In this document: one piece after another, positions 112 through 12,594 of the stretch | Layout of the letters: each line of letters starts with the position of its first letter | Position numbering within the stretch: position 1 is the first letter of the stretch | Origin: a candidate division WOR-3 bacterium | GTDB taxonomy: Bacteria; Hydrothermota; UBA3072 | Assembly (NCBI GenBank): GCA_039804165.1 | Contig: JBDRZZ010000008.1 | Coordinates: 448-64,447, forward strand | DNA: 64,000 bases | Direction of reading: 5' to 3' | Translations under genes and position numbers: made by a program | The notes under the pieces: generated by a model | Databases searched by the model: none | What the model was told of the DNA's origin: nothing | The model's input: the letters and a program-made list of their open reading frames with translations, nothing else

Positions 112-139
112 TTGACAAGCAGATAGAATTTCATAAAAT
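112..139 (+). promoter_or_regulatory. sigma70-like promoter candidate for the first operon
   Basis: TTGACA at 112-117 and TAAAAT at 134-139 with a 16-nt spacer. Downstream lie a heptamer repeat, AGGAGG at 186-191 and the ATG at 197. Confidence 0.45.
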
Positions 140-145
140 AATAAT

Positions 146-180
146 CAGCCTACAGCCGACGGCTTACAGCTTACGGCATA
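146..180 (+). repeat. Five tandem heptamers: CAGCCTA CAGCCGA CGGCTTA CAGCTTA CGGCATA
   Basis: Read directly from the sequence. It is a GC-rich block in an AT-rich leader. It shares the core GCTTACAGCT..CGGCA with 8684-8711. Confidence 0.8.
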
Positions 181-196
181 ACAAAAGGAGGAATAG

Positions 197-1582
197 ATGT
201 TTAAAAAAGTTTTTATTCTCGTAACTGTTTATGTATTCTTAGTTGGAATGGTTACGCGAAAGGAACTGGAAAGCGTAAAAGAGAAAGTAGATTCTCCAGC
301 AACTGAATCTACCGCAACTTCTGAAACGTCTCAGATAAAATTAACTACTGTTTATGAGAAGACCTTTGATGAGGAGATAGTGGATGTGATATTTGATACT
401 GCGACGGTGACGGTGGCAGAGGCGATTAATATGGGATGGAAGGAGTCAGAATTTGAAGGGGTGGAAAAAACGAGAGGAAAGGCTAAAATCACTTATCCGA
501 AGGTAGTTTTTTACGGAAAGGAAGAGTGGAGACGAACGAGAGCTATTGAGGGATATATAATTGCTTCAAAGATTGTTTTTTATGATAAGGATGGGAAAGT
601 GAAAAGGGAATTACGACTTGGCGGAGAAAGTGATTATTATATAAATGTATCTCCGAATGAAAAATATATTGGAGTCTCGAAACAATTCCAGAAAGAAGGG
701 GAGAAGGGTAAAGCAGCTATGTTGTTCGATTCTGAAGGTAATGAATTGCTGTCTTTTGAAAAGGGACAGATAGTCTCTCCGATATCGGATATGGGGTTTG
801 TAAAATATACCCCTACTTCATGGGATTACGATGGTTTTCTTATACCTATTTGTATTTATGATTTGAATAAAAGAAAAGTTGTTGATTATGAGACTCTAAA
901 TCCCGAAATTCCCAATGCAGAGGTAGGAGGTGATGTTTTTCTGGAAGAAGGAAAATATATCTTTTCCTGGGTTTCTGGAGTGAAGAAAAGTGTTGGGAAA
1001 TTGATAGATGTTCAAGCAGGTAAAATTCTCTGGAAGAAGGAGTATGATTTTGAAATAACTGGGGATTGGAGAACTGTTGCAGGAAAAGAAGATCTAGAGT
1101 TGTTTTGTATGTGTCGTAAGGAGGATTATGTTTACGATATAGTAGCTCTTCATTGGAATACAGGAGAGGTTTTGTGGTCGTCGAGATTAGGCGCTCCTTT
1201 CTCTAATATTCTGATTGACGAGTATAATAATATTTACATTGCTGGATTTGGTTATATAAATTCTTTTACTCCTAAGGGCAAAATGCGGTGGTATTATGAA
1301 GAACAGGAAAAACCAGTGAAGCAATTTTATCCCTATAGAGGTACACAATTGACCTATTATATCACGCTAAAACTTTCAGGAGATCAAATCTTAAGTAGAG
1401 GTATAATTCCCGAGATGATAAAAGGTGTCTGGAATTGGAAATCATCGGAGATTTTAAGTCTCTCGAAGAAAGATGGGAAAGTAATCAAAAAAGAGAGATT
1501 TACGGGAAAAGTGATGATGAGTTCTAAAGGTGGAAAGTTGGGTATAGTTACCAATGATAAAGTGATAAAAATCTTAAAGTGA
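197..1582 (+). CDS. Hypothetical membrane-anchored or exported protein with possible beta-propeller (PQQ/BamB-like) repeats
   Basis: 461-aa ORF with a strong SD (AGGAGG 6 nt upstream) and an N-terminal hydrophobic segment 'VFILVTVYVFLVGMV'. Repeated motifs such as 'GEVLWSSRLG' and 'NNIYIAGFGYINSFTPKGKMRW' are present. The stop overlaps the start region of the next ORF. Confidence 0.6.
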   Translation: MFKKVFILVTVYVFLVGMVTRKELESVKEKVDSPATESTATSETSQIKLTTVYEKTFDEEIVDVIFDTATVTVAEAINMGWKESEFEGVEKTRGKAKITYPKVVFYGKEEWRRTRAIEGYIIASKIVFYDKDGKVKRELRLGGESDYYINVSPNEKYIGVSKQFQKEGEKGKAAMLFDSEGNELLSFEKGQIVSPISDMGFVKYTPTSWDYDGFLIPICIYDLNKRKVVDYETLNPEIPNAEVGGDVFLEEGKYIFSWVSGVKKSVGKLIDVQAGKILWKKEYDFEITGDWRTVAGKEDLELFCMCRKEDYVYDIVALHWNTGEVLWSSRLGAPFSNILIDEYNNIYIAGFGYINSFTPKGKMRWYYEEQEKPVKQFYPYRGTQLTYYITLKLSGDQILSRGIIPEMIKGVWNWKSSEILSLSKKDGKVIKKERFTGKVMMSSKGGKLGIVTNDKVIKILK

Positions 1583-1596
1583 TGGAGGGTGGGAAT

Positions 1597-4500
1597 ATGA
1601 AAAACAAGATATTTTTGATGTTATTTATTATTGCTGGAAGTCTGTATTCCTATCCCTGGCCAATAAGACCTTTTAATCAAGTCCACAATGTAATCGCAAC
1701 ATTGGGGGATTACAGAAAAGGTATAACAGAAGACCCTCATTATCCAAGGTTCCACAATGGTGCAGATATACAAGCTTCCGAAAATACTGATATCTTTTCA
1801 ATTGAAAGTGGAGAGTGTAAATGGAGTGGTACAAAGGAAAATGAGGGAGTGAGAGTAAGTGATTATGCCTATATTCATCTAAAAAATAGGTATCCAAAAG
1901 GGCTACCAGTGGTTGGTATCGCAGATACTTCCACGACAGATGAAGACCCGAATAATGACCATCCCACCAAGATTGGAGAGACGAATGATCTTAATCATCT
2001 CCATTTTGCGGAAGGACCTGCAGGTGGTCCATATCAAAATCCTTTGCGAGAAGATGAAGGTCTTGATGGGTATTCGGATAATAATTTGCCTGTTGTTTTG
2101 AAACCTGCTTTTTTCCCCTGGGGGATTGAACTACAAAGAGAACGCATAGAGCGTTCTCCTGATGCTTTATGGGGTAAAGTTGAAATAAGAGCAAAGATGC
2201 GGGATATTACGAATTGTGGAGATAATTCTGGAGTCTATATGTTCGCATACAGTGTTGTTAAAAAGCAGGGTTCTGTTGTTCATAGTGAAATATCAGGAAT
2301 TTTTGACCAGGTAACTCCTCCAAATGATGGTAATCCGGTTCCACATATCTATGATACGACACTCAGCAGACACGCTCAATCAGTGACATTTCACTACTGG
2401 CTTACTAATCCCATAATAGACCATCAGGTTAATAATCGTTACTGGAATACAAAATTAAAACAAGGGCAAGCATGGAATGGAAGTGAGGCATTGATTGACA
2501 GGGAAGCAGCATACAAGGATGGATGGTATCGAGTATGGGCGTTGGGATACGATATTAGGCTGAATGGAGGTGATACCCTAAATCGCAAAGGTGCTGATTT
2601 TACAGATGTTCTTCTTGATAATTTCGTTCCTTATGTTTATGCTGTTATGGTTACAAGGAAGGGAGAGTTGGTTTACAATGCAATGTGGCTACTTAATGAT
2701 ACTCAGGATGGTCTTGTCCTTGATAAAAGGAATGATGAGAATGTTTCTCCAGGTGATAGACTGACATTTAAGATATATTTTTCGGAGGAAATGGATACCC
2801 ACCTGAATGCCATAAAAGTGACACTCAAAAAATCTTCCAATGAACTGGATATTGATGATGGTGCAAGATGGATTGATAAGAAGACATGGGAAGGTTCTGT
2901 AACTATCCCTAAGGATTTTGGAAAAGGGAAGGCGGTTATAAATATCTCCTGTAGGGATCTTGCAGGACACTTATTAGACAAACACCCTGGGACTATTGCT
3001 ACCCGTGATGGGAATGGCAACTGGCAAAGATACGAAGAAGGAATAGATGTGAATCATAAATTGTATATAGGAGAAGCACCAATTGTGACTAATACCGACC
3101 CATCCGATAATGCAACTGATGTTCCGATTGATAAGAACATCACTATTGTGTTTTCTAAGAGGATGGACTCAATTGCAACAGAGAGAGCAGTTTTGGTTGT
3201 TTCGGAGGATGGAAGTGATTCTGTGGATTTTACTCCTTTCTGGAGTAAGAACTATGATACCCTTGAGCTTAGACTTAGAGATGAACTTAAATATTGTATA
3301 AGATATATAGGAACAGTTTCCGATACAGCAATCAGTAAGGAGGATAGTATTCAACTTGATGGAGATGAGGACGGACTCCCCGGGGGAAATTACGAATTTA
3401 CATTTATGACTGAAGAACCCGAGGTTTTGGTGTTTAAGGATTCAATGGTAGCGCATTTAAGAGACGGGGAGAGTGTGAATTCTAAAGTGATTACAGCGGG
3501 ATGGAAGTTAAAAGACACTGTAGAGTGCGAAATTCAATTTTTTGTGAATAATCCTGGAGGGTGGTCGGTAATTAATGCTAATAATGAAGGATTTTTATTA
3601 CCTCCTAAAAATATTCATAAAAATTCTTATACTGTTTTGAATAATAATGGAAAGAGACCTCTGAATGTCCTTTATGATATCAGAATAGAATGTGTAAATG
3701 AGAGTGGGGAGGGCTACTATTGGACTTCCGAAAGTCATGAGTATGATCATTCGGATGAGAACCAGTCCCCAGGTGTCACAGAATACCCAACTCCATGGAT
3801 AATTAGCACATCTACAAGCGGGGCTACACTTGGTGGAGGCACAGGGGCTTCACCTTCAGGTCTCCCGGATATCGGCATCCTCCTTTCAGGTTGGGCTGAT
3901 GGATATGGACATATTTTGGGGAGGTATGGGATTTCGACATTACCTGTTAAACCAGATTTAAAAATTATTAATCATCCTGAAATTGATATTAAGGATTCTG
4001 TGAAACTATTGGTTATCGGTTCTGCTGGACTTGCAGGGCTCAATACACCAACATTTAAACAGAAATTGGAAGAATATGTTAGAAATGGTGGAAATTTACT
4101 TGTGTTTACTCCACGCTATGGCTCGGAATTAGAGGTATTGCCCGGGAATGTTGGAGGATATGGATGGAATGAGGATCAGTCATGTTTTTGGAGGGGAGCG
4201 TATTTAAATAAGTGGCATCCAATTTTCGCTGGGCAGAAAAGTCCAGTTATGGATTGTAATATTGATGGATATTTTTACGAAGTTCCAGAAAATTCAGAGT
4301 TTCTTCTTTGTAGAGTGAGGAATGCTCTGCCTGCGCTTTTTACATATAAATATGGAGCTGGAACTATAATTCTTTCTTCCTTGTATTCTGATTGGAGTTA
4401 TGGGCATAATCAATGTTCGCAAGGGGAGTTAAATTTACTCCGAGATTTGACAACCTGGGCGGTTAATCCTGATATGGAAATTCCAGAGTTTTATAAAGAT

Positions 4501-7500
4501 TCAGCGGTAGCTGTTCCTGTATCAATTAAATATACTGCAAATGATACTGTAAGGGCAAGAGCTGCAATAATTAAGGTTTATACTCCTGATAGAGTTTTGT
4601 ATGATTCTATAGTTATTCCTATTTCTCTTGAAAGAGGAGAGGAGACAGAATGGACGTGGAGTAAATCCTCTATTCCAGAGAATCTTGGTTTATGGGTAAT
4701 TGATTATGCATTAAAGGATGAAAATGGGAACTGGATTCAAGGATATAATCGTGGGGCAGTTTTTGCTCAGAAGATAGATATTCCTATAGGTAGTATTTAC
4801 ACTTCTAGAATTTTTGAGATGGAGGTTATTTCTGATAAGAGAGAAGTTCTCATTGGAGATACCGTGAACTTTCAAATAAAAATAAAAAATAAAGGAGAAT
4901 ATCCATTTCCAGGTAAGCTCATAATAGGTGTAGATGAAGTTGAGGGAGGGTGGAAAGTTATTGATTCAATTCTTGGCGTAACGATTCCTTCTGATTCAGA
5001 AATTATAGTTGAATATACGCGTTCTTTTTATATTAGTTCTGATGTTTACTTTGGATTGTATCAAAATCAGCAGGTCTTTTTTAGTAGATTTTTTAGGAAT
5101 ACTGCACTTCGTCGTTCGAAAAGTGTAGGTGTAATTTCTAAGCCCTTTAGTTTATTTATTTATACTGATAAATCTAATTATGTTCTTGGAGTTGATTCGG
5201 TGAATTATAAGATTGAAGTGGAAAATAGGCTACCTAAGGCTTCTTACCCTTTTGTTAATCTTTATATTCTCCAAGATTATTTTAAACATATTATCTGGAG
5301 CGATACTCTGGAGCTTTTGGCAAAAGAGAAGAAGGAAATAAAAGGTGCTTTTTCCCTTTTGGATTTTGATATAATAGAGGGGAAAAAGAAATTATGTTGT
5401 GAGTTATTTTTTAGAGATAGTTTATGGAATTTTGCAAGTAGGAGTTTTGAGGTGACCTATCCTCAAGTTAAATGTTCATTTATTCTTCCTGATTCTTTTC
5501 AATATGGAGGGTCTAATCTTTTTTCTGTGAGGTTGTCTGCTTCAGGGTGGTTACCACCCGGAAAACTTTTGGTGAGAGGGGTGAGTTTTTCGGATTCAAT
5601 AATATATTTAGATTCAATAATGATTGAGAATACGATAGATACAGATACAACATTGATTTTCAATTACCAACCGGAGTTATGGTCCACAAGGAGTGCGTTA
5701 AAAGCTCAATACAGATATATTAACAGATATATTAAACGAACAGCATTTTTGGAGTTCTACCCACCAATTGTTTCGAGTTTTAGACCTGTTTATTCTGATT
5801 ACCAAGAGGGTTTTATACCTGAAGATACCGCGGTGTTTAAGGCTTGGGTTTCTCTTAAGGGGGATTTATACGGAGTGCCACTGGAATTTTCCTTATGGAG
5901 CGATTATCTTGGGAAAGATACCTTAAGAGACACCATCATTTTGAATCCGACAACCGGGAGGACAATCACTTTGAAGGACTTTGTGGGTTTGGAAATCCCT
6001 GCAGATACAATGATTCCCTATAGTTACAGATGGAAATATCTCGATAGGAAGGGGGAATCTATCGGCAAGCTTCAGTATTTTGTGCAATCACCTGAAGCGG
6101 TTCTACACTGGCCTTTGAATGATACTTTTTCGATTGGTGCGAGTATCCCGATTACATTTACAAACAGTATAAAATCTCCTTCGAGGGTGGACATTAAGTC
6201 TGTTTCCCTTTATGGTGGTGATGCGGTTGGCAATATTGTAGAAAATTTTGATGGTCCCGGGGTGGTGGAAATTCCAGGAGAGGGTTCTTACACTTTCAAC
6301 ATCACGGTCCCCCAGTGGAAAAGTGGTCAATATTACCTATCGGTAGAGGCAAGTATTGTAGAGGGCAGGGGCGTTAATTTGAATTCATATCCTTATGGTT
6401 GTCCGATATATATTGATGGTCTTACTGCGAATATTCAGGTCTCGACTTCCAAGAAGTATTATGGTCAGGGTGATGAGATTCCATTTTCTTCTGTGCTTGA
6501 GAACGGAGGATATGGATGGAATGGTGCGGAGACTTTGAAAGTGGCGAGGATGAAAGATACTTTAGAGAGTTTTTCGATATGGGATTTAACGGACACAGGT
6601 AGTGTTGAGACCTTTGGGCTTATACCGGATAGTAGCGGAGGGTATATTCTTGCTCCAGAGTATACATTGGAATGTGTTGCCAATCTTCCATATATGCCGG
6701 CTGAAGATTCGTTTTTAGTTGTTGCACTTGCTGTGGACGAATACGATAATTTATGGGTGATGTCCGCAAGTTGTAACGGTAATAAAATATTTTTGAGAAA
6801 ATGGGATAGACCTTTTGGCAATCTCCTTGCCGAATTTTCAGTTTCGATTCCAATGATAGGATGGAATATTGATATGGAGGTGCATCAAGGCGTGATATAT
6901 ATCTCATCTCCTTCTAGTGGTGTAGTATACAGGTTAAATGCAAATTCAGGAGAGATTATTGGATATATTCACCCTCCCGGAGGTGGATTTTTTATGGCAA
7001 TCGGTGGTATCGAAGTTAAAGATAATGGTAACATTCTTGTTTTAGATAAATGGACTAGAATCCTCTGGGAATTTTCAAGTTCAGGAGATAGTATTTCCAC
7101 CTTTGTTTTGCCGGTAGAATTTGAGGATCCATATGGGTATGGATTCGGGTTAGAGTATAAAGACGGAGTAATCTATCTTGCTGATAGAAAAAAAATTATA
7201 ACTATCGAAGGGACATCAGTTGATTCGTTTGGATTAGCAAATTATGCAAATTATATGCGTATTTCTCTATCTGATAATGGAAAACTTGCAGCTACTTTAT
7301 GTGGCGAAGGATGTGGTTTAAATATTTTTTCTCCCCAGAGAGAGTTCGAAGTAGGAGGGGGAGTTTTTGTGCAAGATTTTTGTGGAGATATAACTTTTTA
7401 CAAAAATTATATTGTTAGAGAAGAAACGGACGAGGAGCATGTAGTAGTTAATGATACAATAGTAAATATTATTTATTATAACAATCTTTACCTCTACAGA

Positions 7501-10500
7501 GAATTTGGTAAAGATAATGGAATGCTTAAGGTTTCGGAGTTTCCTGACGCACCTTGGAAATATAAATTTCATAACTACAGGAATATAGATATTCCTAACT
7601 CTGGTTCCATTTCCTATCAGGTTTTAGACCAGAATGCAACATATCCGAGTGATGATAATCTTCTACCTCTTTCGAGTATGATTGGTTCAGATTGTCTTTT
7701 ACCTATTTATATAACTATGGAGGGCAATTACGAGAATTCACCTGTTTTCTATGATTTACTCTTGAATTTGAAAACTTTTGTTTCTGATTCGGTTATTGTG
7801 AAAAATACCTATCCTTTAAGTCTCTCGCCTTATGAGAGTGTTTCATTTGCTGATACGATAAGAGATACTGTTCCTCCTGGAGATTATATTGTATCTGGAG
7901 ATGCTTATTCTAATTATCCTCAGCACATTACTTCCGATTGGAAATCATTCACAGTTATTGGAGATAATGTTGCTTTACTTTTGAATTCTAATAAGGAAGA
8001 AGGTTTTGTTGGAGAGGAGTTCAGAATTAATCCTCTTACGATAAATCCACTTCCAGAGATAAAAGAGCCTTTACATTTAATCGTAAAAGGATATTTTGGA
8101 AGCCTTGATACAACTTATCTTGATACGACTTTTATGCTTAACCCACAGTCCTTAGATTCATTCCCATTTGTGATTAGGCCGCAGGAACCTATAGTTATTC
8201 GGGCGGAACTTGCTCTTCCTTCTGGTGATACGCTTAGAAGGGAATTTATCCCTGTTGTGAAGAATACAAGACTTTTGTCTTTGCAGATTTTTGCTCCTGA
8301 TGTTGTTGATTTATCACCTTTTACTGCCAAAACAGAAATTTACAATTATTCCTTTAGTCCTCTTTCTTTAGAGGTTAAAAGGATATTTGGTGCTGATACT
8401 TTAATTAATTCATTAACTCTTGGGCCCAAAGAGACTTATACTTTTGTTGATTCTTTCTCTACGGTGAGGTCTGATACTTTAAAGGTTATTGCGATAACTG
8501 GAGGAGAGAGTTTCACAAAGAAGAAATTCATTGATTGTGGAATAAAGGGTATAGTTCTTCTTGATTCTCTATTTGAGGTTTCTCCGGATTCTGTGAGGAT
8601 GAACGGGATTGTGAGAAATGAGGGTTTGTATCCTTTAAGCGGGAAGGTGCTTTTCTGTCTAATTGAAAGAACAAAAGGGCTTATAGCTCACAGCTTACAG
8701 CTCTCGGCAACAGGGTTCTCAGCCGAGAGACAACAGGTGAGGGCTGAGCCTTTCCCCACCACTCTATCAGCTCAACAGGTTGCGATTTCTTCGGTTGCAC
8801 GAGTTGGGAAGGATTTGAGTCTCTCTGCGTTTATAAGCCAGCTCCAGAGAGCAGGTGTGGATACTTCTCTAACCACGATTTACTTACCTATGGGTAAAAG
8901 TGATACAGTTCCAATTGCTTTTAATAGACACAACCCAGGAAATTACGAATTGCTTGGTTTTCTCTTTGCGGAAACGACGCCGGAGAAATCTGTGATGTTG
9001 GATTCAAGTTCCTCAATTGTTAATATTGTTGGTAATAATCAAGTTTTTGTTGATTCTATCTTCGTTTCTCCAACCTGTGATTCAACTGGTTCTGTGCTAT
9101 TATGGGTTACTTTAAGTAATCGTTCTTATGCTCCATTTTCTGGGAATCTTATTGTAAGTTCTCCAATATGTTATTTTGATTCTCTTATTACTCTACCTAT
9201 AAAGATGCAAGATACCATTGTATTTTTCTTAAAAGAGCCAATTGATGAAGGAAGATATTACTTTACTGGGGCTCTATTAGAAGGGGGATTTTCTGTTAAT
9301 TTAAAATCGCAAGTTCTTGAATTTCATCCGATATATCACTTTGATTCTTTACCTAATTTAGAGTTCTCTGTTCCTGATTCCGGGATGGTTGAGATTTCTA
9401 TTAGTAATATTGGTAATGGGAAAGGAGAAAGAACTGTTGCAGTTAATTTTGTAGATGTTTTAAACATAAATAGAGATGCGGAGATTAAACCGGGTTCTTC
9501 TGAGAAGTTTTCTGGGAGTTTCTATATTCCTGAAGATTTCCCTGGAGGAAAATACTGGGCGAGTGCTGAAATTTTGAAGAACTCCTATCCCGAAGTAGAC
9601 ACTTTATTCCCTGTTCAAGTAAATGGCATCCGAATTGAAGCAAGAGATTCTCTTGATAAGCCTGTTTATTCTCCAGAGGATACCGCAAAACTTTCTATAA
9701 TTGTCAAAAATAACTCTCTATTTAGCGGAGAACTTCTTTCAATTGTTAGATATGGAGAACTTGAGCTTGATACAACTTTTATCCTTGGGGGGATGGAAAA
9801 AGGAGTTCTAAATAAAACGAATAGGGACACTCTATATCTTGATGCCTCTGGCGTTTACTTAACTGACCCGATTGAACTTATCGGTTATGACAGTGTGACA
9901 ATAACAAGGGATGGTTCAGACTCTCTCGTTGTTCAAATACGAACAGACTCGCTAATAGGAAAAGGAATATGGACAACTATTACAGATAGCATAACTTATC
10001 CCATTTCGAAGTGGTTGCAATTGAAAATTGAGAATAGGGAAGAAGAAACTCTATTTTTAAACTCTATAAATCTTGATTTTAAGCCTTCCGGTTCTTTAAT
10101 TCTGGATTCATTCCCATCCACAAGAAAAGTCCTTAGTTTTAATTTACCTGTTAACCGGAATGAGAAGAAACTTGGATGGGGGATTTACAATCCTTCTGGA
10201 AGGTCTCTTGTTCTTGATGAGAGGTATGTGTATATTGCAGATTCACTTCTTACGATATACACGGATAAAAGTAGATACGAGATGCTTGACACTGTTCGGG
10301 CAACTCTTATAAAACACTTCGCAGATACTTCTTACCTCTTTAATTATCGTGTTTACTTCTCACCAAAAGAGGAAATAAAAGATAGTTTCAAACTCAGAGA
10401 TGATACAATGAGGTTTGAGTTTGTGATTCCAAATTGGACTCGGTCGGGGACATATACGATTGATTATCTGGTTTATAAGAATGGGCTCAAAGCTCAGAGC

Positions 10501-12594
10501 TTGCAGCTTTCGGGGAGAGGTCTTTCAGTTGACAGCTCACAGCTCTCAGCTTTAGGAGGTGGTAGATTCGAGACTCCTCTTGCGAAGCAATGGGTTTTAG
10601 GTAAGCCTCTTTTAAGTTCAAATGGCAAAGATGTTTTCCTCTCTGGAGAGCATCCATTCGATGTCAATGGGATAACGGTTTATTTCAAGAATGCAAAAAT
10701 GGATACGAACTTCTATCACAATGGAGAGATTGCTAAAGTCTGGATGGATATTTTCTCGGATATAGACCTTGCTGTCCATCTCAATATTTCCTCGACAGGT
10801 TCTTCTAAGATGGATATTTCTCTATCTCTTAAGAAGGATATTCCGAACCATTTTGAATTCACCTATCCGATTGAGGGTTGTAAGAGAGGAACAAATGAAT
10901 TGTATTTACATCTTGAGAAGGATTCGGTGAGTCTTGCAGGGACTGTTCTCCGTTTTGATGTTTATGTTGCGGACACGACTGCTCCAGTGATTTCTGTTCT
11001 AAAAGAGCCGAGCAACACATATTCGAGTAATCGTTTCTATGAATTAATTGCCCGTATTTACGAACCTGAATTAACTGGAACTCCATTTACAGACACTCTC
11101 TACTATAGAATTGCTTCAAGTGGAGGAAGTTCCTGGAATGCGCTCTCTGCTCATTCAGTTAAGGGAGATACGAATAGATATCTAATTCCATCACATCCAA
11201 ACGGGACTCACATTGAGTATCACTTGATTGCTCGGGATGAATTTGGGAATATTGCAAGATATCCTAAAGAAGGGGAGAGAGATTTCTGGGTTTTGTCTGC
11301 TCTAAAGCCGAGCTGGCAGAGTTTAACTTATTCCAATAAGCCTTCTGTTATTCTAAATTGGGATCTTCCAAGAGATCTTATTTATTATCATTGTGGATTA
11401 CATTCTGATACGGTAAGCTTAAGCGATATAGAGTTTGCAACGAGATTCACTCCTCAATTTATACCTGCCAAGCTAAATCGGATTGGGATTGAGTTTATAG
11501 ATGAAGGGTCCTTCATTATTGATACTTTGAAAATTTCCCTCTATTATATTGGAGCTGATTTATTACCCGGTGTAAAAATAGATTCTTTTGTTTTTGTTGA
11601 CTCTTTCTATAATGGTTATAAGGAGATAGAGCTTCCCGGAATAGAGGTTCCAAAAGAAGGAATTTTTGTTGGGATAAAAGGTTCAAAGGATCTATATGGG
11701 ATTTTTGATGGTTTTGGGGAAGGAAGTCATACGGTTAAAAGAAGTGAAAATTCGTGGGAGTTTAGAACGCCAGGAGAGCTTCTTATTAATGGAATGTTTT
11801 CTCATCCTGTTGGGAGTGAAGAGGAGAAAGTTGCTTCTCTTGTTTCTTTTGGTGTTTACCGTTCATCTGGCGGAATTTGGGAGAGAATAGCTTACAACTT
11901 AAAAGAGACTTCTTACACGGATACAACTATCCAGGCTGATTCCAGATATTCATATAAAATAATGGGTTTATTCATAAATCCAGTTGATTCCTTCTTTTCC
12001 ATAAGTGATGAGGTTTTTGTTGATCTTACTCCTCCTGAGCTTGATACTGTTTTAATCAATAAGGTTGGTGATGAGATATTAATTAAGGTATTTTTAGAGG
12101 ATCCATCTGGGGTTGTTTTAGATTGTCTTGGTTATTTAGAAGGAGGTGTAGAGAAATTTGTTTTTGATACTCTTGATGATGGAGAGTATTTCTTTACTCT
12201 TAGCCTTACAGAAGATACTTTGAGGTATTTCTTCTTTGCTGAAGATAAATCTTTATTGAGGAACAAGAAGAGGTTTCCTGAGATTGGTTATTATAAGTGG
12301 TGGGAGGGCTTATCTGGGATTACGGAAATTCCTGATTCCACCTATTTATTCAGGGTTAATACTGTTATAATGGGTGATTTAGATTTAAGGTATGCTCTTT
12401 CTAAGAAAGAAAGAGTTAGTATTTGTCTCTTTGACATCGCTGGTAGGAAAGCAAAAATTCTTGTGGATAGAGTGGAAGATCCTGGATATTATTCTATTCC
12501 CCTTAAGGCGTCTACACTTCCTTCTGGGATTTATTTCCTTAAAATGGAAACAGAAGACTATAGAAAAACAGTGAAATTGGTAAGGATAAGATAA
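1597..12594 (+). CDS. Giant (~3,665 aa) secreted multidomain surface protein with an N-terminal M23 metallopeptidase domain and a T9SS C-terminal sorting domain
   Basis: Single uninterrupted ORF. I prefer the ATG at 1597, 7 nt after GGAGGG, which yields the signal peptide 'MKNKIFLMLFIIAGSLYS'. M23/LytM motifs lie at about nt 1666-2058: 'FHNGADI' (HxxxD), 'YAYIHL' and 'NHLHFAEG' (HxH). An SbsA/Big_5-like Ig domain 'TNTDPSDNATDVPIDKNITIVFSKRMD' lies at about 3076-3410. Many CARDB-like repeats are present, and NHL-like propeller repeats lie at about 6700-7250. The C terminus 'ICLFDIAGRKAKILV...SGIYFLKMETEDYRKTVKLVRIR' is typical of a T9SS CTD. Confidence 0.85.
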   Translation: MKNKIFLMLFIIAGSLYSYPWPIRPFNQVHNVIATLGDYRKGITEDPHYPRFHNGADIQASENTDIFSIESGECKWSGTKENEGVRVSDYAYIHLKNRYPKGLPVVGIADTSTTDEDPNNDHPTKIGETNDLNHLHFAEGPAGGPYQNPLREDEGLDGYSDNNLPVVLKPAFFPWGIELQRERIERSPDALWGKVEIRAKMRDITNCGDNSGVYMFAYSVVKKQGSVVHSEISGIFDQVTPPNDGNPVPHIYDTTLSRHAQSVTFHYWLTNPIIDHQVNNRYWNTKLKQGQAWNGSEALIDREAAYKDGWYRVWALGYDIRLNGGDTLNRKGADFTDVLLDNFVPYVYAVMVTRKGELVYNAMWLLNDTQDGLVLDKRNDENVSPGDRLTFKIYFSEEMDTHLNAIKVTLKKSSNELDIDDGARWIDKKTWEGSVTIPKDFGKGKAVINISCRDLAGHLLDKHPGTIATRDGNGNWQRYEEGIDVNHKLYIGEAPIVTNTDPSDNATDVPIDKNITIVFSKRMDSIATERAVLVVSEDGSDSVDFTPFWSKNYDTLELRLRDELKYCIRYIGTVSDTAISKEDSIQLDGDEDGLPGGNYEFTFMTEEPEVLVFKDSMVAHLRDGESVNSKVITAGWKLKDTVECEIQFFVNNPGGWSVINANNEGFLLPPKNIHKNSYTVLNNNGKRPLNVLYDIRIECVNESGEGYYWTSESHEYDHSDENQSPGVTEYPTPWIISTSTSGATLGGGTGASPSGLPDIGILLSGWADGYGHILGRYGISTLPVKPDLKIINHPEIDIKDSVKLLVIGSAGLAGLNTPTFKQKLEEYVRNGGNLLVFTPRYGSELEVLPGNVGGYGWNEDQSCFWRGAYLNKWHPIFAGQKSPVMDCNIDGYFYEVPENSEFLLCRVRNALPALFTYKYGAGTIILSSLYSDWSYGHNQCSQGELNLLRDLTTWAVNPDMEIPEFYKDSAVAVPVSIKYTANDTVRARAAIIKVYTPDRVLYDSIVIPISLERGEETEWTWSKSSIPENLGLWVIDYALKDENGNWIQGYNRGAVFAQKIDIPIGSIYTSRIFEMEVISDKREVLIGDTVNFQIKIKNKGEYPFPGKLIIGVDEVEGGWKVIDSILGVTIPSDSEIIVEYTRSFYISSDVYFGLYQNQQVFFSRFFRNTALRRSKSVGVISKPFSLFIYTDKSNYVLGVDSVNYKIEVENRLPKASYPFVNLYILQDYFKHIIWSDTLELLAKEKKEIKGAFSLLDFDIIEGKKKLCCELFFRDSLWNFASRSFEVTYPQVKCSFILPDSFQYGGSNLFSVRLSASGWLPPGKLLVRGVSFSDSIIYLDSIMIENTIDTDTTLIFNYQPELWSTRSALKAQYRYINRYIKRTAFLEFYPPIVSSFRPVYSDYQEGFIPEDTAVFKAWVSLKGDLYGVPLEFSLWSDYLGKDTLRDTIILNPTTGRTITLKDFVGLEIPADTMIPYSYRWKYLDRKGESIGKLQYFVQSPEAVLHWPLNDTFSIGASIPITFTNSIKSPSRVDIKSVSLYGGDAVGNIVENFDGPGVVEIPGEGSYTFNITVPQWKSGQYYLSVEASIVEGRGVNLNSYPYGCPIYIDGLTANIQVSTSKKYYGQGDEIPFSSVLENGGYGWNGAETLKVARMKDTLESFSIWDLTDTGSVETFGLIPDSSGGYILAPEYTLECVANLPYMPAEDSFLVVALAVDEYDNLWVMSASCNGNKIFLRKWDRPFGNLLAEFSVSIPMIGWNIDMEVHQGVIYISSPSSGVVYRLNANSGEIIGYIHPPGGGFFMAIGGIEVKDNGNILVLDKWTRILWEFSSSGDSISTFVLPVEFEDPYGYGFGLEYKDGVIYLADRKKIITIEGTSVDSFGLANYANYMRISLSDNGKLAATLCGEGCGLNIFSPQREFEVGGGVFVQDFCGDITFYKNYIVREETDEEHVVVNDTIVNIIYYNNLYLYREFGKDNGMLKVSEFPDAPWKYKFHNYRNIDIPNSGSISYQVLDQNATYPSDDNLLPLSSMIGSDCLLPIYITMEGNYENSPVFYDLLLNLKTFVSDSVIVKNTYPLSLSPYESVSFADTIRDTVPPGDYIVSGDAYSNYPQHITSDWKSFTVIGDNVALLLNSNKEEGFVGEEFRINPLTINPLPEIKEPLHLIVKGYFGSLDTTYLDTTFMLNPQSLDSFPFVIRPQEPIVIRAELALPSGDTLRREFIPVVKNTRLLSLQIFAPDVVDLSPFTAKTEIYNYSFSPLSLEVKRIFGADTLINSLTLGPKETYTFVDSFSTVRSDTLKVIAITGGESFTKKKFIDCGIKGIVLLDSLFEVSPDSVRMNGIVRNEGLYPLSGKVLFCLIERTKGLIAHSLQLSATGFSAERQQVRAEPFPTTLSAQQVAISSVARVGKDLSLSAFISQLQRAGVDTSLTTIYLPMGKSDTVPIAFNRHNPGNYELLGFLFAETTPEKSVMLDSSSSIVNIVGNNQVFVDSIFVSPTCDSTGSVLLWVTLSNRSYAPFSGNLIVSSPICYFDSLITLPIKMQDTIVFFLKEPIDEGRYYFTGALLEGGFSVNLKSQVLEFHPIYHFDSLPNLEFSVPDSGMVEISISNIGNGKGERTVAVNFVDVLNINRDAEIKPGSSEKFSGSFYIPEDFPGGKYWASAEILKNSYPEVDTLFPVQVNGIRIEARDSLDKPVYSPEDTAKLSIIVKNNSLFSGELLSIVRYGELELDTTFILGGMEKGVLNKTNRDTLYLDASGVYLTDPIELIGYDSVTITRDGSDSLVVQIRTDSLIGKGIWTTITDSITYPISKWLQLKIENREEETLFLNSINLDFKPSGSLILDSFPSTRKVLSFNLPVNRNEKKLGWGIYNPSGRSLVLDERYVYIADSLLTIYTDKSRYEMLDTVRATLIKHFADTSYLFNYRVYFSPKEEIKDSFKLRDDTMRFEFVIPNWTRSGTYTIDYLVYKNGLKAQSLQLSGRGLSVDSSQLSALGGGRFETPLAKQWVLGKPLLSSNGKDVFLSGEHPFDVNGITVYFKNAKMDTNFYHNGEIAKVWMDIFSDIDLAVHLNISSTGSSKMDISLSLKKDIPNHFEFTYPIEGCKRGTNELYLHLEKDSVSLAGTVLRFDVYVADTTAPVISVLKEPSNTYSSNRFYELIARIYEPELTGTPFTDTLYYRIASSGGSSWNALSAHSVKGDTNRYLIPSHPNGTHIEYHLIARDEFGNIARYPKEGERDFWVLSALKPSWQSLTYSNKPSVILNWDLPRDLIYYHCGLHSDTVSLSDIEFATRFTPQFIPAKLNRIGIEFIDEGSFIIDTLKISLYYIGADLLPGVKIDSFVFVDSFYNGYKEIELPGIEVPKEGIFVGIKGSKDLYGIFDGFGEGSHTVKRSENSWEFRTPGELLINGMFSHPVGSEEEKVASLVSFGVYRSSGGIWERIAYNLKETSYTDTTIQADSRYSYKIMGLFINPVDSFFSISDEVFVDLTPPELDTVLINKVGDEILIKVFLEDPSGVVLDCLGYLEGGVEKFVFDTLDDGEYFFTLSLTEDTLRYFFFAEDKSLLRNKKRFPEIGYYKWWEGLSGITEIPDSTYLFRVNTVIMGDLDLRYALSKKERVSICLFDIAGRKAKILVDRVEDPGYYSIPLKASTLPSGIYFLKMETEDYRKTVKLVRIR
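8684..8860 (+). repeat. GC-rich insert-like repeat copy inside the giant ORF, in frame and starting with heptamers
   Basis: TAGCTCA CAGCTTA CAGCTCT CGGCAAC at 8684-8711. An 8-bp inverted repeat is present: CTCTCGGC (8701-8708) and GCCGAGAG (8722-8729). The first 60 nt are about 58% G+C by hand count. The encoded peptide 'AHSLQLSATGFSAERQQVRAEPF...' is A/Q/S/L/R-rich, unlike the K/E/I/N/Y-rich flanks. Confidence 0.7.
10485..10600 (+). repeat. Second in-frame copy of the same GC-rich repeat family inside the giant ORF
   Basis: AAGCTCA GAGCTTG CAGCTTT CGGGGAG at 10490-10517 aligns at about 70% identity over ~45 nt (hand alignment) with 8684-8728. A second run ACAGCTC ACAGCTC TCAGCTT lies at 10532-10552. 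The peptide is 'AQSLQLSGRGLSVDSSQLSALGGG'. Confidence 0.7.

Follow-up and report, generated by a model that had tools for sequence, protein, structure and literature searches.

A G+C-rich block in a giant surface-protein gene of a candidate division WOR-3 bacterium joins a hypervariable, heptamer-built linker to a conserved two-helix segment

We analysed a 64,000-nucleotide (nt) stretch of DNA, hereafter the window, comprising positions 448–64447 of contig C8 in a 1.96-Mb assembly (49 contigs, 33.9% G+C, 95% complete) whose nearest named relatives are metagenome-assembled genomes labelled 'candidate division WOR-3'. The window carries a plus-strand gene for a giant surface protein (1579–12594), within which a G+C-rich block at 8684–8860 had been read, in an original prediction made from the letters alone, as a small repeat or mobile element inserted in frame. 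We find that this block is a composite: a hypervariable linker built of heptamers, followed by an ordinary, conserved part of a protein domain. The heptamers are a nucleotide-level repeat family, (CRGCTNW)n, typical of this WOR-3 genus; they add to a known, mechanistically unexplained class of bacterial repeats and are not a mobile insert of the kind represented by the Rickettsia palindromic elements (RPEs). The explanation that we consider probable is that dispersed heptamers, resembling the short tandemly repeated repetitive (STRR) sequences of cyanobacteria, are tolerated in a permissive loop of the giant protein alongside helices that are themselves conserved. Throughout, G000 denotes the genome of the window, P0002 its giant protein, P0003 a metagenome relative, and G followed by other numbers further genomes of the phylum.

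What had been read directly from the block was borne out by measurement. The compositional break is sharp, with 53.7% G+C across 8684–8860 against a gene average of 37.7% and the genome's 33.9%; the block is the top 177-nt G+C window of the gene (window mean 37.8%, standard deviation 4.4%), and its value is reached by only 0.11% of genome windows. A hand estimate of about 58% G+C for the first 60 nt compares with a measured 56.7%. The tandem heptamers TAGCTCA CAGCTTA CAGCTCT CGGCAAC stand at 8684–8711 as described, and direct reading places the start of the array, in register, one unit further 5′, at the GGGCTTA that begins at 8678; the full site-1 array is thus GGGCTTA TAGCTCA CAGCTTA CAGCTCT CGGCAAC (8678–8712, plus strand). 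The predicted 8-bp inverted repeat, CTCTCGGC (8701–8708) with GCCGAGAG (8722–8729), is exact and could form a stem (8701–8729, plus strand) with a 13-nt loop and a right arm that is a partial heptamer in inverted orientation; by itself it is weak evidence, being present in 5.5% of segment shuffles. The local fold of 8678–8735 scores z = −2.5, the RNA fold of the whole block lacks significance (z = −1.8 sense, +0.1 antisense), and Rfam gave no matches at E values up to 5 for window positions 8000–11500 on both strands. The block is kept in frame, as claimed: the open reading frame (ORF) is uninterrupted through all 3671 codons, and the heptamers would be translated within it. As to the A/Q/S/L/R-rich peptide of the original prediction, Ala, Ser, Gln and Leu make up 53% of AHSLQLSATGFSAERQQVRAEPFPTTLSAQQVAISSVARVGKDLSLSAFISQLQRAGVD, compared with 24% of the whole protein.

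The composite nature of the block emerged from a comparison of 13 orthologues, 12 of them from other assemblies. Two elements align across all 13, namely the strand ending in ALFCL(V/I/M)E and a core running from RVGK to DTS. What lies between the ALFCLxE strand and RVGK is unalignable and ranges from 40 to 112 amino acids (aa), with G000, at 44 aa, near the short end. In G000 this hypervariable linker 1 (RTKGLIAHSLQLSATGFSAERQQVRAEPFPTT; 8668–8763, plus strand) runs from the strand ending in VLFCLIE to a conserved segment, LSAQQVAISSVARVGKDLSLSAFISQLQRAGVDTS (8764–8868, plus strand), which orthologue alignment and AlphaFold together identify as a two-helix insert of a beta-sandwich domain. 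The full motif of this segment, LSAQQxAISSVxRVGKDxxLSxFxxxLxRAG[VI]DTS, is kept in seven loci of the same genus or family, and orthologues from other genera retain only its RVGK-to-DTS core. AlphaFold renders residues 2366–2396 as coil with a predicted local distance difference test score (pLDDT) below 50, a prediction of disorder, and places helices at residues 2394–2408 and 2415–2424 (pLDDT 78–86) with beta-strands on either side.

These results divide the claims that had been made about the protein context. The block does sit in a loop, between beta-strands of an Ig/FN3-like beta-sandwich; fold searches returned only generic matches to tandem Ig/FN3/macroglobulin beta-sandwich arrays, which speak neither for nor against its 'CARDB-like' label. 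The proposal that the flanks would join sensibly without the block does not hold, since the 3′ ~105 nt (LSAQQVAISSVARVGKDLSLSAFISQLQRAGVDTS) are conserved as protein and modelled as two helices at a pLDDT of about 80. Nor is the block a single inserted element of 175 nt: the original prediction had itself pointed to orthologues as the place to look, and in those examined the 3′ ~105 nt are conserved. Linker and helix part alike are G+C-enriched in most same-genus orthologues, the helix segment reaching 42–50% against 37–41% for the respective loci; in the other-genus locus L006 it is not raised. The G+C content of the helix segment fits its Ala/Arg/Gly/Gln/Ser-rich composition rather than a foreign origin, and annotators may take it as a warning that an abrupt change of G+C within a gene does not necessarily mark foreign or mobile DNA.

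We then considered how the heptamers are distributed across G000. A blastn search with 8671–8880 against the 1.96-Mb assembly returned the query itself and fragments of 13–17 nt, so that further copies of the 175-nt block are lacking. The related copies that had been reported at 146–180 and 10485–10600 are real, and what they have in common with site 1 is the heptamer array alone; site 2 matches site 1 at 69% identity over 55 ungapped nt. RGCY cores at a period of 7 form nine runs of at least three, including four of at least four, compared with one to five runs of at least three at periods of 5, 6, 8, 9 and 10, among all of which a single run reaches four. A strand-specific scan found eight arrays, versus none in the reversed genome. 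An apparent array on contig C6 was dropped as a chance match within a sorting-domain motif (I.Y.LP) of the type IX secretion system (T9SS). The true arrays are those at window positions 146–180, 8678–8712, 10484–10511 and 10534–10554, and four on contig C33.

Both arrays of site 2 lie in a second hypervariable linker of the giant protein, linker 2: site 2a, GGGCTCA AAGCTCA GAGCTTG CAGCTTT (10484–10511, plus strand), and site 2b, CAGCTCA CAGCTCT CAGCTTT (10534–10554, plus strand), which could pair with it; their joint fold (−27.3 kcal/mol, z = −1.2) lacks significance. The array at 146–180 (CAGCCTA CAGCCGA CGGCTTA CAGCTTA CGGCATA, plus strand) is the sole non-coding array of G000 and lies in the presumed 5′ leader of the operon, between a candidate promoter and the Shine-Dalgarno sequence AAGGAGG, ahead of the ATG at 197. 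All four C33 arrays are inside a second giant ORF of at least 4255 aa on the minus strand, with CAGCT on its coding strand, and the array there that codes for PADSSQLYI is retained in the G010 orthologue (L029). This second giant protein is exported, carries N-terminal prenyltransferase/squalene-cyclase-like repeats, and is cut by the contig end (C33:3–12767, minus strand). In total, two giant ORFs amounting to 1.2% of the genome hold seven of the eight arrays (binomial P = 3 × 10−13).

Every intragenic array of G000 is on the coding strand, at least in part because stop codons limit the antisense orientation. CAGCTYA has no stop in any of its three frames, and its complement gives TAA, TGA or TAG in one or two of them; the site-1 array accordingly offers two stop-free frames in the sense direction and none in antisense. 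For the intergenic arrays of congeners, the mean number of open frames is 1.8 sense versus 1.4 antisense. The arrays remaining in G000 may be relics, kept since they are now coding. As a side observation, G000 is poorer in short-period repeats than its congeners, with five three-unit heptamer hits versus up to 25 and no decamers versus up to 52; it also has no array in a tRNA-adjacent spacer where four congeners have one, and looks purged of intergenic copies.

Beyond G000, the heptamers define a family at the level of the genus. The pattern CRGCYNNCRGCYNNCRGCY gave 1–25 three-unit hits in each of the 15 genus genomes and about none in the reversed control. Among 26 genomes outside the genus it was mostly absent, with 2–6 hits in G015, G018, G019, G029 and G039. 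G024, of another family in the same class, exceeds every focal-genus genome with 34 hits to the CRGCY pattern, and it has 11 Y1_Tnp hits and a contamination estimate of 9%. Across 45 arrays and 169 units, with three to five units per array, the consensus unit is C (86%), R (100%), G, C, T (88%), N and A/T (97%), where positions 2–5 are imposed by the search pattern, which leaves positions 1, 6 and 7 as the informative ones.

At the matching point of linker 1, five same-genus genomes were read, and all but G013 carry arrays (G000, G003, G004 and G009); the number and order of their CRGCYNA heptamers differ between orthologues: G003 has AAGCTTA CAGCAACA CAGCTCT CAGCTGA CGGCTCT CGGCTGA CAGCTAA, G009 has ATGCTTA CAGCTGA CAGCCAA CGGCTTA CGGCTAC, and G004 has GGGCTTT CGGCTGA CGG. 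Linker 2, which holds the arrays at 10484–10554 in G000, is hypervariable as well, measuring 46–92 aa in nine orthologues; QLTA- or LTAD-type peptides, the translated unit, occur there in most same-genus orthologues, and G003 and G013 have DNA hits about 1.8 kb downstream of site 1, as in G000.

Elsewhere in the congeners the arrays are predominantly intergenic. A further 20 regions with arrays were taken from G003, G013 and G014; in 18 of them the array lies between genes, as opposed to G000 with its seven of eight arrays in ORFs. The intergenic arrays occupy both strands, and the genes that flank them may be co-directional, convergent or divergent. Many are inverted pairs 25–50 nt apart, predicted to fold into long hairpins with periodic interruptions and a U-run behind them; the folds at L017 (−33.7 kcal/mol, z = −4.0) and L020 (z = −2.3) are examples. 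In one tRNA-adjacent spacer, an array pair is retained in four species as its units and loop change. Sites 1 and 2 of the giant gene resemble a reduced form of this paired architecture, site 1 with an array and the 8-bp hairpin and site 2 with two pairable arrays. Leader heptamers of other unit types were also seen just ahead of a Shine-Dalgarno sequence in two genomes, at a position analogous to that of the array at 146–180: CGACTCA GGACTGA AGACTGG CGACTGA and further units (NGACTNN) in G013 (L075, C7 at about 2130–2200, minus strand), and GGCTCTC GACGCAC GACTCAA in G011 (L027:1555–1615).

The same loops hold quite different repeats in other lineages. Linker 1 of G018, from another genus of the same family, contains six in-frame units of a hairpin plus CC(C/T)ACA (L006:1284–1578, G018:C497). 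One unit, GCGGGCAGAAGCCCGCTCCCACA, has 21 copies in that genome, mostly in intergenic clusters of similar hairpins (copies at L064–L074) and with compensatory stem changes from GCGGGC/GCCCGC to GTGGGC/GCCCAC; no copies were found in G000 or G003. In P0003, an element of about 75 nt based on ACGCAGATNA decamers is common to both linkers (L099:9480–9750 and 11390–11670). A tandem decamer family, ACGCAGAT(A/G/T)A, gives 5–52 hits in 13 of the 15 genus genomes, one in G009 and none in G000; one of its sites is at L003:1944–2154 on the minus strand. The linkers of G003, G009 and G011 are filled with octamers (CTACTCAA, CAATTCAA) and AAATCCC heptamers. The two loops thus collect whichever short repeats the non-coding DNA of that genome holds.

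Drawing these observations together, we propose that the first ~80–95 nt of the block encode a disordered, hypervariable loop of an Ig/FN3-like repeat, built of (C-R-G-C-T-N-W)n and a partial inverted copy. Gene conversion, template switching or polymerase slippage may generate the arrays and drive their turnover. Within genes, arrays would persist only where the sense strand lacks a stop codon, and three heptamers would amount to 21 nt or seven codons, reading QL(T/S)A.SL in the three frames. They would also need a region tolerant of a floppy insert, such as the two loops here and a few sites in the second giant protein. They would most likely provide a flexible spacer that changes quickly in length and sequence from lineage to lineage; we infer that the arrays have no sequence-specific function within the gene.

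Several observations weigh against this explanation. Arrays last at the same loops and intergenic sites across species whose giant proteins are only ~50% identical, a retention that outlasts what is expected of a neutral microsatellite and hints at selection on the DNA or RNA. Neighbouring units are not perfect copies of one another, so plain slippage would account poorly for their origin. Nearly all G000 arrays belong to one operon and one other giant gene, in the sense orientation only and with one leader copy, a distribution that a cis-acting signal would fit equally well. The structural part of the argument draws on an AlphaFold model built on 10 sequences only, with a mean pLDDT of 67. 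A more far-reaching reading, which we think unlikely, is that WOR-3 bacteria of this family have an active process, blind to unit sequence, that writes or copies 7-mers, 8-mers, 10-mers and, in a sister genus, mini-hairpins into DNA. The two loops would be sinks for its products, each lineage filling them with repeats of its own intergenic stock, and would amount to an inbuilt generator of surface diversity; or else the sense arrays of the leader and the giant genes would be signals for a lineage-specific factor needed to express genes of 11–13 kb.

Among the narrower alternatives, a cis-acting role for the sense arrays is unlikely. Here CRGCTNW arrays would be read as RNA or single-stranded DNA by a lineage-specific factor, the loop merely accommodating them, and candidate roles include processive antitermination of the ops/NusG-paralogue type, a HutP-like reader of (NAG-N4)3, and mRNA processing or stabilisation. 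The seven intragenic arrays and the leader array of G000 are all on the transcribed sense strand; array positions are conserved between species despite the ~50% protein identity; the tRNA-adjacent arrays are retained in four species as the surrounding spacer changes; and the leader heptamers of G013 and G011, of other types, lie just ahead of the Shine-Dalgarno sequence. Yet the arrays of relatives occur in both orientations and in all spacer types, giving no single geometry relative to a transcript, and stop codons account for at least part of the orientation within genes. The same loops in other lineages carry quite different repeats, no Rfam match was found, and the fold of the whole block lacks significance. 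Selection on the protein is a much poorer candidate, and we regard it as very improbable that SLQLSA, QLTA or ADSSQL is maintained for cleavage, modification or binding with the periodicity as a by-product. QL(T/S)A-type peptides do occur in both linkers of most same-genus orthologues, and PADSSQLYI of the second giant protein is kept between G000 and G010. Against this, the units of relatives are mostly intergenic, a single array draws on all three frames of its unit, the codons (CAG, GCT, AGC) are set by the unit in a genome of 34% G+C, and the leader copy is untranslated. Hardest to credit is an artefact, either a chimeric metagenome assembly or a recent GC-rich horizontal patch. The sharp compositional break would suit it, as would the failure of an exact-protein look-up to find a second, independent assembly of the gene; the reading frame stays open for 11 kb, however, the architecture across both junctions recurs in twelve orthologues assembled elsewhere, and helix part and linker are G+C-enriched in most same-genus orthologues.

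The transposition of one or more small, non-autonomous mobile elements into the loop, whether RPE-like, REP-like or of the MITE class (miniature inverted-repeat transposable elements), and their retention by chance of frame, is decidedly unlikely. In-frame insertion is possible, as the RPEs and in-frame MITEs reviewed elsewhere show (PMC10969869), and the same repeat families lie between genes and within loops. Sites 1 and 2 are 69% identical over their 55 nt, both P0003 linkers have the ~75-nt composite element in common, and the G018 loop, with six hairpin+CYACA units of a dispersed family and compensatory stem changes, has a REP-like look. The block itself tells otherwise: blastn found no second copy of the 175 nt in the genome; unit number and order differ site by site, leaving no discrete element with defined ends; neither terminal inverted repeats nor target duplications are visible at 8668–8868; and none of the 13 orthologues has an empty site. 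Transposase genes were a further consideration. G013 and the P0003 contig each have a Y1 transposase gene next to the operon, but Y1_Tnp (PF01797) is absent from the array-bearing genomes G001, G005, G006 and G014 and abundant in array-free ones. Since no ends, duplications, multi-copy unit or empty site were seen, RPE-type in-frame insertion, the first of two parallels that the original prediction had drawn, is set aside. The second, to STRR-type heptamers, is upheld by tandem 7-nt units that also occur outside genes. A link between the arrays and RAYT/Y1 transposases was rejected when transposase abundance proved to be uncorrelated with arrays, and a diversity-generating retroelement was likewise discarded, no near-identical template repeat having been found in the 95%-complete assembly. 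For the record, the Y1 genes directly beside the operon encode proteins of ~293 aa (IS200-like/RAYT-like; L099:683–1564 in P0003 and L075:2532–3410 in G013), and the two Y1 copies of G000 are on contig C1, not beside the giant-protein operon.

Comparison with known systems places the G000 heptamers more closely. Dispersed heptamer repeats have been on record since 1990, the year in which Mazel et al. reportedly described the STRR heptanucleotides of heterocystous cyanobacteria. Like the CRGCTNW arrays, STRRs consist of tandem 7-bp units and comprise several families per genome; they are intergenic, as the arrays of congeners mostly are, and their hairpins are described in PMC2670836. The two differ in phylum and unit sequence, and the arrays here also occur in frame. 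Such repeats are over-represented in many bacteria, their origin and function being unexplained (PMC4692102). The best-matched examples, the GGGAATC heptamers of Xanthomonas and the GGGGAYT heptamers of Nostoc/Anabaena, are ~90% intergenic, lie on both strands and are sometimes paired; their loci are kept as length and sequence vary widely, they have no known function, and a connection with slippage by the polymerase has been proposed (Rehm et al. 2015, PMC4692102). They have in common with CRGCTNW the 7-nt unit, short imperfect arrays, confinement to one genus, occurrence on both strands with occasional inverted pairs, loci retained between species as length and sequence change, and a minority of copies within ORFs. 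CRGCTNW differs in its palindromic AGCT/GGCT core, which is not G-rich and has no G-quadruplex potential, and in a lower copy number (1–25 three-unit hits per genome); the surviving copies of G000, moreover, are nearly all intragenic and lie in loops of giant surface proteins.

Other repeat classes are more distant. RPEs were reportedly found within ORFs by Ogata et al. in 2000. They share with the G000 arrays the occurrence of intergenic repeat DNA in frame within ORFs, adding a surface segment that fits the fold, but RPEs are discrete, conserved elements of ~100–150 bp with many copies and with some orthologues lacking them, and none of this applies to the G000 block. Repetitive extragenic palindromic (REP) sequences, including BIME and REPIN doublets, are mobilised by RAYT (Y1) transposases. 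The arrays of relatives recall them in forming intergenic inverted doublets and hairpins near gene ends, in a genus that has Y1 genes; they lack a palindrome with a GTAG/CTAC head, consisting instead of period-7 tandem units, and the distribution of Y1_Tnp does not match. Finally, the 7-bp repeats at hmw1A of Haemophilus influenzae are described as a phase-variable contingency locus (PMC8262952). In both cases a surface-protein gene contains or follows tandem heptanucleotides, and the difference is that contingency tracts are long and perfect, with a copy number that changes within populations, whereas the G000 arrays consist of three to five imperfect units.

With the heptamers of this genus, the dispersed heptamer repeats gain WOR-3 as a phylum and CRGCTNW as a unit, both new to the class. 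The same two loops hold heptamers in one genus, some species of which have decamer elements there, and hairpin+CYACA units in another; they amount to a natural experiment, and as orthologous sites they are a defined place for measuring repeat turnover. The pattern suggests that permissive loops which capture repeats, or generate them locally, recurrently allow surface proteins to change fast.

The giant gene itself encodes 3671 aa from the GTG at 1579 (3665 aa in the P0002 version) and includes a Big_5 Ig-like domain; a match to a C-terminal T9SS sorting domain is sub-threshold, at 23.6 bits versus a cut-off of 27. It is the second gene of a probable two-gene operon. The first, an ORF of 461 aa (197–1582, plus strand), overlaps the start of the giant gene and has a beta-propeller match, also sub-threshold, as its only similarity. 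No close orthologue of the 461-aa gene was found beside the giant gene in congeners, and the P0003 contig has a 477-aa PQQ-like propeller in its place. A predicted sigma-70-like promoter, TTGACA-16-TAAAAT (112–139, plus strand; 11 of 12 matches in a consensus scan), precedes the operon. The N-terminus of the giant protein (1579–2100) contains HNGAD and HLH motifs; the P0003 orthologue has a precomputed Peptidase_M23 match, and a Pfam scan of the whole giant protein at E values up to 0.01 returned no M23. A second G+C-rich stretch of the giant gene, at 3676–3900, reaches ~50% over 177 nt; free of heptamer periodicity, it codes for a Gly/Ser/Thr-rich segment (…SGATLGGGTGASPSGLP…).

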